The notes beneath the pieces were generated by a model. That model was not told the origin of the DNA and made no database searches. It saw only the letters and a program-made list of their open reading frames with translations. 64,000 nt of DNA from Candidatus Poribacteria bacterium (GTDB lineage Bacteria; Poribacteria; WGA-4E; WGA-3G): contig OY764016.1 of NCBI GenBank assembly GCA_963667805.1, forward strand, positions 1,874,725 through 1,938,724. Direction: 5' to 3'. Made by a program: the position numbers and the translations under genes. Every line of letters begins with the position of its first letter. The first letter of the stretch is position 1. Below, piece by piece: positions 4,779-44,828 of this stretch.

Positions 4779-5184
4779 TGAGATACCCCTTTCGTTGAAG
4801 CTACGATTGAAATATTAGTTTTAATTTGCAAATTGTATGCCACTCCGAAAACATCGTCTTAGTCGTGGTCTAAATACGAACTTTAGAGGAAATATAGTAG
4901 ATTCTGTAATTACTTTTACACCAAACTCGGTGCGGTTAGAATGCAGATCGCATTTGGGCGAGTACGCCGCAAAACCGCACTTACCGGGGGTATACAGATA
5001 TTTTCGGACTTTACTATATTTGGAGAATACTGCACCAAATAGGGCAAGCAACAGTGGCACCTGCACGGATTTGTGCAATCACCTCGAGGCTGTATTCCTG
5101 TTATTTGCGAACATCAGTAGACCTCTTTATGATATTAATGACGCGAGTTAAGGACGAAATGGTTGCACAATTTTACAAAAGATT

Positions 5185-18644: not shown

Positions 18645-18760
18645 AAAAGACTAAACCTCGCTGGGTTAAATTTGCATTGAATTATACTACAAAAAGGAGG
18701 GCGTGTCAAGCAATTTTATATTTTATTGTTCGTCTGCTCATACCAGCATCTTTGCTAATT

Positions 18761-26330: not shown

Positions 26331-26360
26331 TAACCCCCTAAATCCCCCTTATCAGGGGGA
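26331..26360. repeat. palindromic G/C motif TAACCCCCTAAATCCCCCTTATCAGGGGGA (copy 1)
   Basis: Same motif as 31596-31626, located after the stop of the small membrane protein gene. Confidence 0.6.
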
Positions 26361-26883: not shown

Positions 26884-26912
26884 TTGCAATTGCGGGTGAA
26901 ATGGTGTATAAT
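26884..26912 (+). promoter_or_regulatory. sigma-70-type promoter for tRNA-Asn (-35 TTGCAA / 17 bp / -10 TATAAT)
   Basis: Near-consensus hexamers with 17-bp spacer, 11 nt upstream of the tRNA 5' end. Confidence 0.7.
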
Positions 26913-26923
26913 TACATTAACAA

Positions 26924-26996
26924 TCCCCCATAGCTCAGTTGGTAGAGCAGATGGCTGTTAACCATCGTGTCGGCGGTTCGAGTCCGTCTGGGGGAG
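26924..26996 (+). tRNA. tRNA-Asn (anticodon GTT)
   Basis: Cloverleaf: acceptor TCCCCCA/TGGGGGA, D-arm GCTCAGTTGGTAGAGC, anticodon loop CTGTTAA, T-arm GGTTCGAGTCC. Discriminator G; CCA not encoded. Confidence 0.9.
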
Positions 26997-31279: not shown

Positions 31280-31553
31280 GAAAAATAAATGGACATTTTT
31301 GTAGTGTAGGAAATCGTTAGCGTGCGTCCTCCCTCCAAGGTGTTGCTTGAGAGTTTCGATTGGGATTCGCATTACCTGAGAAGTGAGTGGACGGTTTCGA
31401 CGTCTACGCCTGCTGCGCCTTCGCAGGTAAAAGGGAATATTGTTGGGACATGGGGTGAATTGAAAAAACAATAGGCAGAGATACGCCACAGATACGGCTT
31501 GAGGCGTGATAGTCGGTCGGTTTTCTACCGGATGCTATCACGCCTCTTTTTTT
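31280..31553 (+). ncRNA. candidate ~270-nt non-coding RNA or orphaned leader, delimited by promoter and strong intrinsic terminator
   Basis: No credible ORF on either strand. Internal hairpins (for example CCTGCTGCGCCTTCGCAGG). Ends in a 12-bp perfect stem GAGGCGTGATAG/CTATCACGCCTC plus T7. Confidence 0.35.
31501..31553 (+). terminator. rho-independent terminator (12-bp GC-rich stem + TTTTTTT)
   Basis: GAGGCGTGATAG...CTATCACGCCTC followed by seven T. Confidence 0.8.
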
Positions 31554-31560
31554 ATAGTAG

Positions 31561-31581
31561 ATTTTAGAATTACTTAGACAT
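31561..31581 (+). repeat. solo IS terminal-inverted-repeat-like fragment (ATTTTAGAATTACTTAGACA)
   Basis: Matches the right IR of the IS at 32500-32521 (AAAATGTAAATTACTTAGACA) in 17 of 21 positions. Confidence 0.5.
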
Positions 31582-31595
31582 TAGAGATGAAGACT

Positions 31596-31626
31596 TAACC
31601 CCCCTAACCCCCCTTATCAGGGGGGA
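31596..31626. repeat. palindromic G/C motif TAACCCCCCTAACCCCCCTTATCAGGGGGGA (copy 2)
   Basis: Near-identical to 26331-26360; contains a C5-6/G5-6 hairpin. Confidence 0.6.
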
Positions 31627-31676
31627 ATTAGCGGTCTTTCTCATGACACATTGACTTGCAAATGTCTAAGTAGTGT

Positions 31677-32279
31677 TTACATTTTTTTAGCAGTCATAAG
31701 AATGGCTGCTAAATAAACAAATCCAAGGTATCGGACTGCGTATTTATCATAGCGAGTGGCAACACGACGAAACTGTTTCAAGCGATGAAAAAAACGCTCA
31801 ATGACATTTCGAAGTTTGTAGACGCCTTTATCATAAGGGCGTTCTTCAAGGCGGTTGCGCCGCGGACGAATCACCGCAACGCCCCCTTGAGCAAGAATCT
31901 CGGCTCTCAAAGGATCCGAGTCATAGGCAGTATCGGCAACGACACAGTCAAAGGTCTGTCCGGCAATCAATGCCGAGGCTTGGCGAACATCATGACTCGC
32001 ACCTGCCGTCAAGATAAAACGCAAGGGGCGAAAGGCATCACTCACCGCAGCGTGAAGTTTCGTCGTGAATCCCCCGTGGCTCCGACCCAAAGCTTGCTTG
32101 TTTTGACCGCCATTTTTTTTTCGGGGCACCTGCTGCGGAGGTGTGTGCCCGGACGATCGTCGAATCAACGAGGAGTGCCGAGATTTCACCCGCAGCATGG
32201 AAATGTTGATGAAGTTTTTCAAAAACACCCGCATCACACCATCTTCCAAAGCGGCGATAGACGCTGTTCCAATATCCAT
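31677..32279 (-). CDS. IS5-family transposase OrfB (DDE_Tnp_1 catalytic part; expressed as OrfAB fusion)
   Basis: DDE-region motifs (VVADTAYDSD, RNVIERFFHRLKQFRRVATRYDK). The in-frame continuation from OrfA requires loss of one A in the A9 run. Confidence 0.75.
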   Translation of the reverse strand: MDIGTASIAALEDGVMRVFLKNFINISMLRVKSRHSSLIRRSSGHTPPQQVPRKKNGGQNKQALGRSHGGFTTKLHAAVSDAFRPLRFILTAGASHDVRQASALIAGQTFDCVVADTAYDSDPLRAEILAQGGVAVIRPRRNRLEERPYDKGVYKLRNVIERFFHRLKQFRRVATRYDKYAVRYLGFVYLAAILMTAKKM

Positions 32280-32475
32280 AGGCTTTTGGCAGCCCTCGCC
32301 ACGTCGCTCCTTCTTTGGTCATCCAGACCAGAGCCGAGAGAAAGCGTTTACAGGTTTCAGGATTTCCGACATAGACGTTTGGAAGGACTTTGAGAAACGG
32401 GAGTATGCTCTGCCAAGCCACATCAGAAATCATCACGGGTAGGTCTTGAGTTGGCTCTCTGTTTTTAGATGTCAT
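32038..32475 (-). CDS. IS5-family transposase OrfA (DUF4096-like N-terminal part)
   Basis: 145 aa (MTSKNREPTQDLPVMISDVAWQSILPFL...); ends just after the A9 run. Confidence 0.7.
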   Translation of the reverse strand: MTSKNREPTQDLPVMISDVAWQSILPFLKVLPNVYVGNPETCKRFLSALVWMTKEGATWRGLPKAYGYWNSVYRRFGRWCDAGVFEKLHQHFHAAGEISALLVDSTIVRAHTSAAGAPKKKWRSKQASFGSEPRGIHDETSRCGE

Positions 32476-33002
32476 AGAAAAGAGTATACTAAAACCTACT
32501 CAAAATGTAAATTACTTAGACAATGTAAACACTACCTACTTATTTATAGGATTTACCATATTTGAGATGGACATAACCGCGCGTATCAGACGACTTTTTT
32601 AAAATTATGCAACCTTTTTGCCTTTAGGTTGTATCTATATAGATAGAGAGTGTTTCTTTCTGATGCCAAAAGACGTTTTTTTTATCGAACGCACGTTGGG
32701 CAGTGTGCGAAAAACAGACCCTCATCGCGTAAAAAGTAGGCAGATATATGCCGCATCCGAGGGTTTGCCCCATATAAATGGTGATAATAGCCGATTTTGT
32801 GAAGTGGCATTGTTCTTGCATGTTAAATAAAAAAGAACCTTACAACAAGGTCCTATAGATACCGTATTCACAGGAACAGAAGATCAGACAAATTTACTAA
32901 AAAAGTGTAACTTTTTTCGCTAACTTCCGTTTAACGTTGTGTTGGACTATATATTCAATTTTTAGAGAATCTATACGAACTCTTTTAGAAAGGGGTAAAG
33001 CA

Positions 33003-33237: not shown

Positions 33238-34482
33238 TCAAACCGATTCTTGGAGTTTTGGATGGTTGCCAAAGATCTTCACAAGAGAGCGGACTAATTT
33301 TTCGGGATCGTGGCGGATAACGTTCATCTGAACGCCGCCTAACCATGTGCCGAATTCAGTGACGACCATATCCCGGATGAGGTCCGCCTCAATCACCTGG
33401 ATCCCCTGCGCTTCAAGGTTCTCCTGCTCACGATCATAAGAGACTTGCACTTTTGAAGCGTCTGCGACTTGCATTGTCTCAACAGACAGAGACGAAATAT
33501 CTTTCGCTAAGTTCAGCACGTCCATGAGGTGCTGCGTATCTTCATAGAGCATTGAAAGCCCTTCCTCGGAAAGTGAACGAATTCGAGTCAACTGCGAAAC
33601 CAGTTCCTTCCGAACATACTCTTGCATGATTTCCGTTGGCGCGGGTTGGTTATTCACCACGACGTAATTGAGCGGAATCTTGGCATGGTCCAAAATAGCA
33701 TTAACGTGATCCGTGACCGCATAACCATCGGTTTCACCCGGCTGTGTCATAACGTTACAGACATAGATCTTCATGGCGTCTGAACGCTGAATCGTTTCCA
33801 CGACCCCTTTGATAACCAGGTTCGGCATAATGCTGGTATAAAGGCTTCCGGGACCGATGATGATGACATCGGCGTTAATCAGGGCATCTACGGCTCCTTC
33901 ATGCGCTTGGCATTCATAGATTGCATCGGGGGAATGGTGTGTTTTTCCGTTCTCGCGGGGTTCAAAAAAGACACGCTTGATCGGCTCACGATTTTCTCGG
34001 ATAGGGATCGTAGATTCGCCGCGAACGATCTCTCCATCGGTGAGTTCGGCACACAAAACGGTATAATCCAACGTAACAGGGATAATCTGTCCACGCACTG
34101 AGAGTAATCTGGATGCCGCCTGGATGGCTTTCGGGAAGTTTCCTTCAAACTTTTCCGTCAGTGCTGTTAACAATAGATTGCCGACCGTATGTCCACCGAG
34201 TTCCCCATTGCTTGAAAAACGATATTCAAAAAGCCCTGCGAGTTCATCAGCATCGGACAATGTGAACAGGAGTCTCCGGATATCGCCCGGTGGGAGCATG
34301 TCAAACTCTTCAACGAGCCGTCCTGAACTTCCACCATCATCAGAAACGGTAACAATTGCCGCCAGACTATCCAAATCAATGAGGTGGTCTCTACCTTTCT
34401 CCAAATCAGCGTAGTGCTTAATGCCACTCAGCAACGCGGATAAACCACTCCCGCCTCCGATGCAGGCAAGCTTCAAAGCCAT
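33238..34482 (-). CDS. gluconeogenesis factor YvcK / CofD-like (UPF0052) family protein
   Basis: GGGSG...TVSDDGGSSG...LPPGDIR motifs. Confidence 0.8.
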   Translation of the reverse strand: MALKLACIGGGSGLSALLSGIKHYADLEKGRDHLIDLDSLAAIVTVSDDGGSSGRLVEEFDMLPPGDIRRLLFTLSDADELAGLFEYRFSSNGELGGHTVGNLLLTALTEKFEGNFPKAIQAASRLLSVRGQIIPVTLDYTVLCAELTDGEIVRGESTIPIRENREPIKRVFFEPRENGKTHHSPDAIYECQAHEGAVDALINADVIIIGPGSLYTSIMPNLVIKGVVETIQRSDAMKIYVCNVMTQPGETDGYAVTDHVNAILDHAKIPLNYVVVNNQPAPTEIMQEYVRKELVSQLTRIRSLSEEGLSMLYEDTQHLMDVLNLAKDISSLSVETMQVADASKVQVSYDREQENLEAQGIQVIEADLIRDMVVTEFGTWLGGVQMNVIRHDPEKLVRSLVKIFGNHPKLQESV

Positions 34483-34507
34483 AATTCCTCCATTTTTTTA
34501 ACTATTA

Positions 34508-34810
34508 AATCTGAGCGGGGTTTCCGTTGTCAACCCCGATCCAAAATTAATAAAGCACTTTTTTGAGGGTATGAAAGGTAAACCTAACTCAAAACCGCCA
34601 TGTCATGAATCTGAGCGGAGTGTCCGGTGTTAATCCCAGTCCAAAATTAATAAAGCACTTTTTTGAGGGTATGAAAGGTAAACCTAACTCAAAACCACCG
34701 TGTCATGAATCTGAGCGGAGTGTCCGGTGTTAATCCCGATCTAAAATTAATAAAGCACTTTTTTGAGGGTGTGAAAGGTAAACTCGACTTAAAACTGTCG
34801 CGTAATAACC
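34508..34810. repeat. three tandem copies of a 100-bp repeat (copy 3 diverges at its 3' end)
   Basis: Unit AATCTGAGCGGAGTGTCCGGTGTTAATCCCGATCCAAAATTAATAAAGCACTTTTTTGAGGGTATGAAAGGTAAACCTAACTCAAAACCACCGTGTCATG starts at 34508, 34608 and 34708. Confidence 0.9.
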
Positions 34811-34862
34811 TGAATAGTCAGAAAAAAGGCGTTCCTACCCTATATAATAGATAACGGAATTA

Positions 34863-36260
34863 CTACGAAATTTGTTTCATTAACATCTTGAGTGTTTCAA
34901 TCGTCTCGTCACACAACTGTTCCGCCACAGTGAAAGTCGGTGCTTCACTAAAAACCCGAATGACAGGTTCTGTGCCGGAAGGACGGATGTTGACCCATCG
35001 GTCCTTCCAGACCCGTTTCACACCGTCCGTTAATTCCAGTTGCGGTTCCGCGCCAGCGCCACACGCTTCTTTGTAGACCTCCAAAGCGAGGTCCACAAGA
35101 CCTTCCGCAAGCTCCTGCGACGGAATTTCCAGTTTCTTTCGACACATCTGATAGTGGGGCATATTCTCCACAAGCTGCGTTACCGTCGCACCAGATTCAG
35201 CGAGATACTGCGCAATCGCTGCAATAGAAGTGATACCGTCCGTGGTGTAATGGATATTAGGATAGATAACACCGCCAGTGCCTTCACCGCCGATAGCTGC
35301 ATTCACGGCGTGCATCTTCTCAACGACCCAACCGACACCGACTTTCGTTCGGTGGAGCACAACACCGTGATCCGCCGCAATATCATCCAACATTCGACTC
35401 GTTGATACCGTGGCAACGACATCGCCTTTCGTCTTACGCAGCATAAAATCAGTGATAAACGCAAGCGTCCATTCACCGCTCAATGGGACACCACGCTCCG
35501 TCACAACGACAAGCCGGTCGGCATCTCCGTCGTGGGCAAAGCCAATATCCGCACCAGAAGCGACAACTGCTTTACAAAGTTCATCTAACGCCTCAGGTGT
35601 GGGTTCGGCAGGACGGCGGAAATGTCCATCGGCGACACAGTTAAGCGCAACAACCCGACACCCCAGTCTCCGCAAGAGGGACGGACTTATCACACTGCCG
35701 GCACCGTTGCCAGCGTCCATGACGACCTTCAAATCAGCCTTTCGAATTAAATCGGGTGCCACCCAAGAGGAAGACAGAATTTGATCGAGGTGATAACCGA
35801 CTGCCTCTCCACACGTTTCAAGCGTTCCTTGTTCGTTCCAAGAGGCAAGTGCGAAATCCTCTTTTGCGTAGATTCGCATCAATTCGTCCCGTTCCGCCTG
35901 TGTCAGAAGATGTCCCGAAGCAGAGGCAAATTCAATGCCGTTCCACGCAACGGGATTATGACTGGCGGTAATGGTAATACTCCCTTGGGCACCGAGTGCT
36001 TTCGCCATTAGGAGTATCGTCGGCGTTGGACAAAGCCCTACATCTATGACGTGGCATCCTGTGGCGAAAAGTCCAGCAAGGACGGCATGCCGAACTGTAG
36101 GACTGGAAGTTCGGGAATCTCTGCCAACAATCACCGTTCTACCACCAACGAAGGTGCCAAACGCCATCGCAAATTGCGTAATGATTCGGACATCGAGCGA
36201 AAAGCCGACCTCACCCCGAACGCCTGAAACACTCACAATCGGTTTTTCTGCCTTACCCAT
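34863..36260 (-). CDS. phosphoglucosamine mutase / phosphomannomutase family protein
   Basis: Active-site loop TASHNP. PGM_PMM domains I-IV. Start placed at the ATG with a GAGAGGA RBS; the track ORF extends to 36290. Confidence 0.8.
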   Translation of the reverse strand: MGKAEKPIVSVSGVRGEVGFSLDVRIITQFAMAFGTFVGGRTVIVGRDSRTSSPTVRHAVLAGLFATGCHVIDVGLCPTPTILLMAKALGAQGSITITASHNPVAWNGIEFASASGHLLTQAERDELMRIYAKEDFALASWNEQGTLETCGEAVGYHLDQILSSSWVAPDLIRKADLKVVMDAGNGAGSVISPSLLRRLGCRVVALNCVADGHFRRPAEPTPEALDELCKAVVASGADIGFAHDGDADRLVVVTERGVPLSGEWTLAFITDFMLRKTKGDVVATVSTSRMLDDIAADHGVVLHRTKVGVGWVVEKMHAVNAAIGGEGTGGVIYPNIHYTTDGITSIAAIAQYLAESGATVTQLVENMPHYQMCRKKLEIPSQELAEGLVDLALEVYKEACGAGAEPQLELTDGVKRVWKDRWVNIRPSGTEPVIRVFSEAPTFTVAEQLCDETIETLKMLMKQIS

Positions 36261-36279
36261 ACAATCCTCTCTGTAGCCT

Positions 36280-37056
36280 TTATACAGCATATCTACGGGA
36301 TCTGGTTATCAGCCATGCTCCCAAAAAACAGCACCCGCCAATCACTATCTGCCAGACTCCCACAAGATACCACGGCTTCGGATAGTAGAATACATACGAA
36401 GGAACAGGCGTGAGTTCATAGAGAAGCGGATTTCTAAAGATGTCAAATCCCTCAAAGATACAGCACACAACAATCAGGGGGTTCAGGTGTAAGACTGGTG
36501 GAATGAAAGGTTGAAGATCGTCCACATACCGTTGTAACGGGTTGAGCAGAAACGCGCCACCCATCAAAACACACCATAACAGGGTGGCAAACTCCGCGCT
36601 GAAGAGGGCATCTCGGAAAACCTGAGTCCCCCAAACCCCGACCGCCGCTGCCGACAAACTATAAATCCCCAGTATCACGAACATCTGTAACGCCGTGGCG
36701 ACGGGAATACGCGTAACGAACAGAGCCGCCCCTGTCGATAAAAACACCCAGCATAACATCGGTATCTGACTTATCAGCAGCAGTCTTAACAACCGTTGTC
36801 CAGACGAGATAGAGGCAAGGGCATATTGTGCGTCAAAGCCGGTATTTAGGAAATCGCAACGCACAGCACGGGCAGCAAGATAGGGTGCTACCAAAAGCAC
36901 AACAAACACCTGCGCCATAAAAAAACACTCTATCGGTAAACCGAGTTTTGCTTGTATCAACACCCTATAGAGAAGATAGAGCAAAAAACTCGAAATGACA
37001 CACCACGTGATAAGTGTTCGCAGGAAATGGTTTCGATCGCTCAGAGTCGCATCCAT
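36280..37056 (-). CDS. polytopic membrane protein, hypothetical
   Basis: 258 aa with 6-7 hydrophobic helices. Overlaps the start region of the mutase gene. Confidence 0.45.
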   Translation of the reverse strand: MDATLSDRNHFLRTLITWCVISSFLLYLLYRVLIQAKLGLPIECFFMAQVFVVLLVAPYLAARAVRCDFLNTGFDAQYALASISSGQRLLRLLLISQIPMLCWVFLSTGAALFVTRIPVATALQMFVILGIYSLSAAAVGVWGTQVFRDALFSAEFATLLWCVLMGGAFLLNPLQRYVDDLQPFIPPVLHLNPLIVVCCIFEGFDIFRNPLLYELTPVPSYVFYYPKPWYLVGVWQIVIGGCCFLGAWLITRSRRYAV

Positions 37057-37718: not shown

Positions 37719-37810
37719 AATTCAGCTCTCCGTGTGGTCCTAATTTTAAAAAAATTATATCAGATTCCCATTGGAATGACAACCTTAAATCCCAGGCCAC
37801 ACAAAAAATC

Positions 37811-44734: not shown

Positions 44735-44828
44735 GGGGGAGGATAGGGTCCGGTGGCCCTACCGGTCTTCAAAACCGGCTTGTCCATGCAAGTGGATAGG
44801 TGGGTTCGACTCCCACCCTCTCCCGCCA
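44735..44828 (+). tRNA. selC: tRNA-Sec (anticodon TCA), 94 nt with 8-bp acceptor stem and long variable arm; CCA encoded
   Basis: GGGGGAGG...CCTCTCCC acceptor. Anticodon loop CTTCAAA. Extra arm CTTGTCCATGCAAGTGGATAGG. T-arm GGGTTCGACTCCC. Terminal GCCA. Confidence 0.85.

Follow-up and report, generated by a model that had tools for sequence, protein, structure and literature searches.

Genes and features of the glmM–yvcK spacer

The tandem repeat described here lies between a phosphoglucosamine mutase gene (glmM) and yvcK in a 64-kb window of a Candidatus Poribacteria genome. By the window we mean the whole stretch of 64,000 nucleotides that was analysed, and all coordinates refer to it unless another contig is named. 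Both genes are on the minus strand, so the order on the gene strand is glmM, array, yvcK. The array was delimited with Tandem Repeats Finder (TRF), a search for in-register copies and alignment of the units. We label them A to C in the direction from glmM to yvcK.

33238 to 34482, minus strand: yvcK/glmR, of the UDP-GlcNAc-binding regulator family, directly downstream of the array (TIGR01826, 287.7 bits, cutoff 196)
34487 to 34491, minus strand: Shine-Dalgarno sequence GGAGG of yvcK, located 4 nt upstream of its ATG (34482-34480), kept as GGAG in all relatives
34508 to 34807, minus strand: tandem array of three 100-bp units
34508 to 34607, minus strand: unit C, yvcK-proximal (copy 1 of the first-pass annotation)
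34608 to 34707, minus strand: unit B, middle (copy 2)
34708 to 34807, minus strand: unit A, glmM-proximal (copy 3)
34863 to 36290, minus strand: phosphoglucosamine mutase by the archaeal-type GlmM model, immediately upstream of the array (TIGR03990, 483.9 bits, cutoff 439)

The family assignments bear out what the first-pass annotation, made from the sequence alone, had proposed for the neighbourhood, namely a glmM-like and a yvcK-like gene on either side of the repeat and a 380-bp gap upstream of the yvcK start. That gap (34483-34862) is mostly filled by the array. The start of glmM is probably the ATG at 36260, giving a protein of 465 aa, as called in relatives. Look-ups with the GlmM of the window, in versions of 475 aa and 465 aa, matched no recorded protein. 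Against the bacterial GlmM model (TIGR01455), the phosphoglucosamine mutase of the window scores 246 bits, well under the cutoff of 448. Upstream of glmM, a 258-aa gene and a TPR gene follow in abutting arrangement. A near-consensus sigma-70-like site (37754-37782, minus strand, score 16.1) lies 35 nt upstream of the TPR gene, and the strength of this site suggests that glmM is probably part of an operon headed by the TPR gene and including the 258-aa gene.

YvcK belongs to the GlmR family, whose members bind UDP-GlcNAc; in Bacillus, GlmR controls GlmS (PMC6171935, PMC7525490). Given this role in UDP-GlcNAc supply, glmM and yvcK are functionally related neighbours. The relatives found through YvcK carry Candidatus Poribacteria names, and their contigs come largely from sponge-type metagenome assemblies.

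Two further features of the window were noted in passing. A 1256-bp stretch at 31303-32558, in place of which three relatives (L001, L002 and L005) have about 35 bp, carries the ORF of an IS5-family transposase (31677-32279, minus strand; NF033580, E = 1e-42). The stretch, about 700 bp downstream of yvcK, has the appearance of an IS insertion specific to this strain. A selenocysteine tRNA gene is present at 44735-44828 on the plus strand (Rfam 78 bits; ARAGORN anticodon TCA), from which it follows that this Poribacteria genome probably uses selenoproteins.

Extent and identity of the array

TRF reports one array at 34508-34783, with a period of 100, 2.8 copies, 92% matches, no indels and a score of 475. 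It is by far the top tandem repeat of the window, the runner-up scoring 66. A separate repeat search places the beginnings of the in-register copies at 34508, 34608 and 34708, and a 51-nt half-unit found no match in 100 shuffles of the window. The first-pass annotation had described three head-to-tail copies of exactly 100 bp and had suggested TRF as a check; both the architecture and the check hold. Its figure of 92–97% identity was slightly optimistic, as the copies are 83–91% identical over the full 100 nt: copy 1 and copy 2 share 91% identity, and the values for copy 3 are 83% with copy 1 and 86% with copy 2. Its remark that copy 3 degenerates at one end is correct. The first 76 nt of this copy are about 95% identical to copy 2, and the sequence is degenerate beyond that point.

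The three copies of the window differ from one another at 9–17 positions, and a two-copy allele of the same array was recovered from an independent sample. For these reasons the array is not assembly stutter, and the 100-bp repeat is real.

Copy number among related lineages

We compared the glmM–yvcK spacer across related contigs, taking about 95% identity to denote the same lineage; the flanking genes of the genomes compared here are 93–97% identical to those of the window. Divergence at 4-fold degenerate sites between these lineages is 0.09–0.16. One copy of the unit is present in nine independent contigs (L001/L038, L002/L040, L003, L005/L046, L006, L037, L039, L041 and L042), two copies in L029, which derives from an independent sequencing run and has a gap of 280 bp, and three copies in the window. 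The single-copy state thus accounts for 9 of the 11 alleles. Contigs that encode an identical YvcK have a gap of 182 bp with one copy of the 100-bp unit. The position is constant, as the repeat always occupies the glmM–yvcK spacer in one-, two- and three-copy alleles alike. Two additional contigs, L030 and L031, break off exactly within the repeat core, and their ends resemble the breaks that short-read assemblies show at multi-copy repeats. L029–L031 derive from the sponge samples SRR19300278, SRR19300306 and SRR19300326.

The unit is absent from relatives whose YvcK is 91–97% identical, and the spacers of these relatives are unrelated to that of the window, with lengths of 73, 110, 115, 116, 174, 183, 214/244 or 448/451 bp. 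Only the spacer ends are conserved, consisting of TTCCGTTATYTATTA after the glmM stop (~15 nt) and the Shine-Dalgarno region, which takes up about 25 nt in front of the yvcK ATG. The absence of the unit where YvcK is still 91–97% identical suggests that it is lineage specific rather than a conserved regulatory RNA or gene. Judged by its distribution, we regard the 100-bp unit as a young, lineage-specific piece of a fast-turnover spacer.

The first-pass annotation had named two observations that would speak against a function of the array: copy-number variation without phenotype or transcription, and a repeat widespread as a generic minisatellite. Copy-number variation among strains was found, with one, two and three copies at a single locus. 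The repeat is not widespread, as the unit is confined to this one locus in the data searched.

The spacer is hypervariable more generally. Across loci L001–L046, in which YvcK is 91–100% identical, its versions number at least nine, are unrelated to one another and range from 73 to 451 bp. In a lineage with 96% identical YvcK (L007–L012), the spacer contains an insertion of about 265–270 bp at about 2187-2459, absent from L013. The insertion generates a perfect TTGACA-N17-TATAAT (with TG), and the roughly 250 nt after this site are GC-richer and mildly structured (folding z = -2.05). No credible match was obtained in Rfam (best E = 3.2) and no match in JGI metagenomes; the insertion may represent a small mobile element or a gene for a small RNA. 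A 32-nt motif, TTTTGCGGCGTACTCGCCCAWAWGCGATCTGC, occurs with 94% identity within this insertion (L009, about 2343-2374), at 4455-4486 of L010 and in an intergenic region of the window (4943-4974, minus strand), and could represent either a regulatory motif or a dispersed element of short length. In a lineage with 93% identical YvcK, a 30-bp palindromic unit, AAACCCCCTAAGTCCCCCTTATCAGGGGGT, is present in the glmM–yvcK spacer as two tandem copies (L014/L016, 2404-2462) or one copy (L017, 1584-1608). This unit is also found in the window at 26332-26359 and 31609-31624. It has the look of a REP-like dispersed element, and in this spacer it seems to make up a second VNTR, independent of the first.

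Relationships among units and history of the array

To relate the alleles, ten units from the window, L029, L001, L002, L003, L005 and L006 were aligned on the gene strand. The outer units are orthologous between the two multi-copy alleles, as unit A of the window and unit A of L029 differ at 8/100 positions and the two C units at 4/100. Unit B is a hybrid, with a C-type left part and an A-type right part: its left 24 nt show 2/24 differences from C and 10/24 from A, and its right 32 nt show 2/32 differences from A and 7/32 from C. The single-copy alleles have the reciprocal pattern, A-like on the left and C-like on the right. Relative to them, unit A differs at 4–6/24 positions in its left part, which resembles the single-copy allele, and at 5–7/32 in its right part, which is a degraded variant (GGGATTAACACCGGACACTCCG); the right part of unit C differs at 0–2/32. 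A hybrid with C-left and A-right sequence, and single copies with A-left and C-right sequence, are the reciprocal products expected of an unequal crossover between A and C within their shared core.

Paralogous divergence between A and C is 16–19%, compared with a neutral 4-fold divergence between lineages of 9–16%. As the divergence of the copies is at least about as large as that between lineages, the first duplication is old and predates the split between the window and L029, and the copies are real. The lineage tree is nearly star-like, with four sub-lineages about equally distant from one another. Copy number may have changed in the direction from one to two to three; with a tree of this shape, a single-copy ancestor with such an increase and a two-copy ancestor with collapse to one copy both fit.

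Overall, we consider it very likely that the array is a locus-specific minisatellite (VNTR) in a fast-evolving spacer, in which tandem duplication and unequal crossing-over expanded a segment upstream of the likely yvcK promoter. It has the features by which such loci are recognized, with head-to-tail units in the range of ~10–100+ bp, a copy number that varies among strains, and recombinant units that relate the alleles to one another. Under this model, a stretch of about 100 bp of the glmM–yvcK spacer, containing an AT-rich core, the likely -35 element of yvcK and an inverted repeat, would have been duplicated in tandem. Drift would then have affected the two halves that face the new junction. 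Once the two copies had diverged, unequal crossing-over (or replication slippage) between them would have generated the hybrid middle copy and so the three-copy state. The upstream copies A and B would be decaying duplicates, whose main effect may be to add 200 bp between glmM and the yvcK promoter.

A putative yvcK promoter and the conserved core of the unit

The unit overlaps sequence features that could be relevant to the expression of yvcK. We scored promoter-like sites using a simple sigma-70 weight matrix with the E. coli-type consensus.

34504 to 34533, minus strand: best sigma-70-like site on the gene strand and putative yvcK promoter, TTGACA (34533-34528), N18, TTTAAT (34509-34504)
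34513 to 34541, strand not assigned: inverted repeat GAGCGGGGTT/AACCCCGATC with 9 nt between the arms, 90% complementary, overlapping the -35
34540 to 34583, minus strand: conserved 44-nt core of unit C (GTTTACCTTTCAYACCCTCAAAAAAGTGCTTTATTAATTTT), also present at 34640-34683 (unit B) and 34740-34783 (unit A)

TTGACA-N18-TTTAAT scores 11.8 and is the top gene-strand site in the one-, two- and three-copy spacers. It is conserved in all alleles, and we regard it as the likely yvcK promoter; yvcK may also be co-transcribed with glmM. The right edge of the array falls within its -10 hexamer, TTTAAT, which is separated from the yvcK ATG by 21 nt. Sites this strong occur at 0.2 per kb per strand in the window, so that about 0.04 would be expected by chance in a spacer of 180 bp. 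Sites scoring at least 10 are 2.4-fold enriched in the intergenic DNA of the window, and the strongest are located 20–60 nt upstream of gene starts and tRNA-Asn. This enrichment and placement suggest that the E. coli-type consensus is meaningful in this organism. A stricter consensus scan, which requires an A at position 2 of the -10 hexamer, lists no promoter in the region. Elsewhere in the window, high-scoring sites include one at 18681-18709 (minus strand, score 17.9), 36 nt upstream of another gene, and one at 26884-26912 (plus strand, score 14.8), about 12 nt upstream of the tRNA-Asn at 26924.

The complete TTGACA/TTTAAT pair is kept only in the yvcK-proximal unit C, the corresponding sequence in units A and B being TTAACA ... 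TTCATG. The spacing between -35 and -10 in the proximal copy is unchanged across one-, two- and three-copy alleles. The inverted repeat has the same distribution. Its core, CGGGGTT-N9-AACCCCG (7 bp), contains the -35 hexamer (CGGGGTT-GACAACGGA-AACCCCG contains TTGACA), is intact only in unit C and the single-copy alleles, forms a hairpin in the fold of L001 and is broken in units A and B. The first-pass annotation had suggested that the repeats could be reiterated promoter/operator units. This idea survives in part: the unit does carry a likely promoter-upstream segment, comprising the core and the -35, but a complete -35/-10 is confined to the proximal copy and the inner inverted repeats are broken.

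The 44-nt core is well conserved between units. Any two of nine units (from the window, L029, L001, L002, L005 and L006) differ at 0–3 positions within it, and the core of L003, with one private substitution, reaches 4/44 differences relative to unit C of L029. Orthologous cores differ at 0–2 positions, compared with about 5 expected at the neutral rate. The 24 nt to the left of the core change freely, with up to 10/24 differences. The AT-rich 3' half of the core is at about -46 to -67 of the putative promoter. This is the usual position of an UP element, and by its position and composition the AT-rich half may be one.

Alternative explanations for the array

Other readings of the array were weighed against a minisatellite. 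One of them concerns a reading frame on the opposite strand of the repeat.

34571 to 34633, plus strand: junction-spanning 20-codon ORF (MKGKPNSKPPCHESERSVRC), second copy at 34671-34733, judged non-coding

A first alternative is that a mobile or repetitive element of a dispersed family (MITE, REP/BIME or MIRU-like) inserted here in tandem, and the sister lineages offer a precedent, as their glmM–yvcK spacers were invaded by other short repeats, namely the 30-bp palindromic unit and the ~270-bp insertion. However, an exact search of 185,579 species genomes with the 21-nt core of the unit returned one match, at the same locus in a Candidatus Poribacteria MAG (JAJEIP010000054.1), and the same exact search of JGI metagenomes returned none. 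There was likewise no match to the unit by blastn in plasmid and phage collections. With blastn-short there was no further copy in the 64-kb window or in any of the fetched loci, and the candidate was rejected on this result. For a genome of 5.5 Mb, the dispersal test covered one representative MAG, searched with the exact 21-mer, and about 250 kb of local sequence. Moreover, the unit has no terminal inverted repeats, and lineages without the unit have spacer ends homologous both to its left edge (TTATTNCGCGG) and to the sequence past its right edge, so we consider this origin highly improbable. We hold the same view of tandem small RNA genes, or of a structured leader or 3'UTR element repeated three times, the former of which the first-pass annotation had entertained. 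Two substitutions in stems, one in UUUUGAG/CUCAAAA and one in GGGGUU/AACC(U)C in L029, are tolerated as G-U pairs on the gene strand only, which would fit a spacer transcribed together with the genes. Against this, units A and B have lost the main hairpin, and the unit is not conserved beyond one lineage of ~95% ANI, being absent where YvcK is 91–97% identical. Rfam gave no match at the gathering threshold in the whole window, and none at E<=10 in 34400-34950, at the repeat. Folding was no better than that of shuffled sequences on either strand, with z of -0.39 (plus) and -1.04 (minus) for the whole spacer and -0.99 to +1.12 for single units. The promoter/terminator scan found no terminator-like site in the units, the sole one lying inside yvcK, and the units lack a promoter and terminator pair of their own. 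A small-peptide gene array on the plus strand, encoding a 20-aa product with two Cys, is scarcely credible. The first-pass annotation had assigned GAGGG-ATG and a 20-codon ORF to every unit, and had noted a Shine-Dalgarno spacing of only 1 nt. GAGGG followed by ATG and an identical ORF does occur twice, and the spacing is indeed 1 nt, but the third copy has GTG in place of ATG and a different ORF of 27 aa. The 20-codon ORF runs across the junction between two units, which means that a single-copy allele cannot encode it, and it is absent from all nine. The two-copy allele has it with the substitutions S7A and E13K and without its stop, giving a 31-aa readthrough. The peptide array was rejected after translation of the ORF across all alleles. 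The GTG-initiated 27-codon ORF (34771-34854, plus strand, antisense) is open and of equal length in the window, L029, L001, L002, L003 and L006. It is the only ORF common to all alleles and varies at 8/27 residues, in genomes where YvcK is 99–100% identical; it is probably open by chance.

A functional reiterated regulatory module, in which the core binds the alpha-CTD, a regulator or a nucleoid protein and copy number tunes yvcK/glmR, is unlikely. The array is directly upstream of the likely yvcK promoter, and the core is near-invariant in all ten units, compared with up to 10/24 differences in the adjacent 24 nt and a neutral divergence of 0.09–0.16. Each unit also contains a weak TTCA(C/T)A-N17-TATTAA site. 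These sites score 7.1–9.8, however, a range that is reached by chance at 0.9–6 per kb, and the -35, the -10 and the inverted repeat have decayed in the inner copies. Nine of the 11 alleles manage with one copy, and related lineages do without the unit altogether. Identity of the core between copies is also expected from repeated crossovers within it. Conservation of the core in the inner copies nearly equals that in the outer ones, which could mean that the extra copies are still functional, for example in protein binding; gene conversion or crossovers within the core would account for it equally well. A specific form of this idea, that the core is an UP-element-like or regulator site and that one, two or three copies set GlmR/YvcK levels among co-existing sponge-symbiont strains, seems quite doubtful to us. 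If true, the array would be comparable to a contingency locus, but with long units and slow switching, acting on a UDP-GlcNAc-sensing regulator of cell-wall precursor synthesis. We favor the locus-specific minisatellite over all of these readings.

Implications

The array matters little beyond its own lineage, and its analysis removes a candidate small RNA or micro-peptide array from consideration. It does provide a natural example of one-, two- and three-copy alleles that can be ordered by their hybrid units, and it identifies the glmM–glmR spacer as a turnover hotspot in Poribacteria. The array may serve as a strain-typing marker for this Poribacteria species in sponge metagenomes, with the warning that short-read assemblies break at this site. 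In the hypothetical case that copy number affected glmR expression, the regulation of UDP-GlcNAc supply would be touched, given the function of GlmR (PMC6171935, PMC7525490).

Comparison with known repeat systems

The array shares regularly spaced direct repeats with CRISPR loci. CRISPR repeats are 24–48 bp long and are separated by unique spacers of similar length. In contrast, the units here abut without spacers, are 100 nt long and have copies that are 9–17% diverged, so the exclusion of CRISPR made in the first-pass annotation stands. Similarity to REP/BIME, ERIC and MITE sequences lies in the short, intergenic character of the unit and its inverted repeat, and such elements occupy the same spacer in sister lineages. 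The unit differs from them in lacking terminal inverted repeats and in being confined to one locus in the data searched.

Contingency loci, as in Neisseria and Haemophilus, have units of 1–9 bp that are located between or next to the -35 and -10 elements and switch at high frequency. As in these loci, a repeat of variable copy number is immediately upstream of, and overlaps, a likely promoter. However, the unit is 100 bp rather than the 1–9 bp that alter spacing or frame in a simple-sequence contingency locus, the spacing of the proximal promoter is constant, and most strains have one copy.

MIRU units are about 40–100 bp long and are intergenic within operons. The MIRUs of Mycobacterium tuberculosis are minisatellites whose copy number varies between strains (PMC3635867). 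The Poribacteria array resembles such MIRU-VNTR loci in having head-to-tail intergenic units of ~100 bp between genes on the same strand, copy numbers that vary among strains, and change by slippage or unequal recombination. Two differences are apparent: MIRUs are scattered over about 40 loci, whereas the Poribacteria unit was found at one locus only, and the copies here are unusually diverged (9–19%), which suggests an array that is old and slow-changing rather than hypermutable. Among known systems, the bacterial intergenic VNTR, with the MIRU loci as an example, comes closest.
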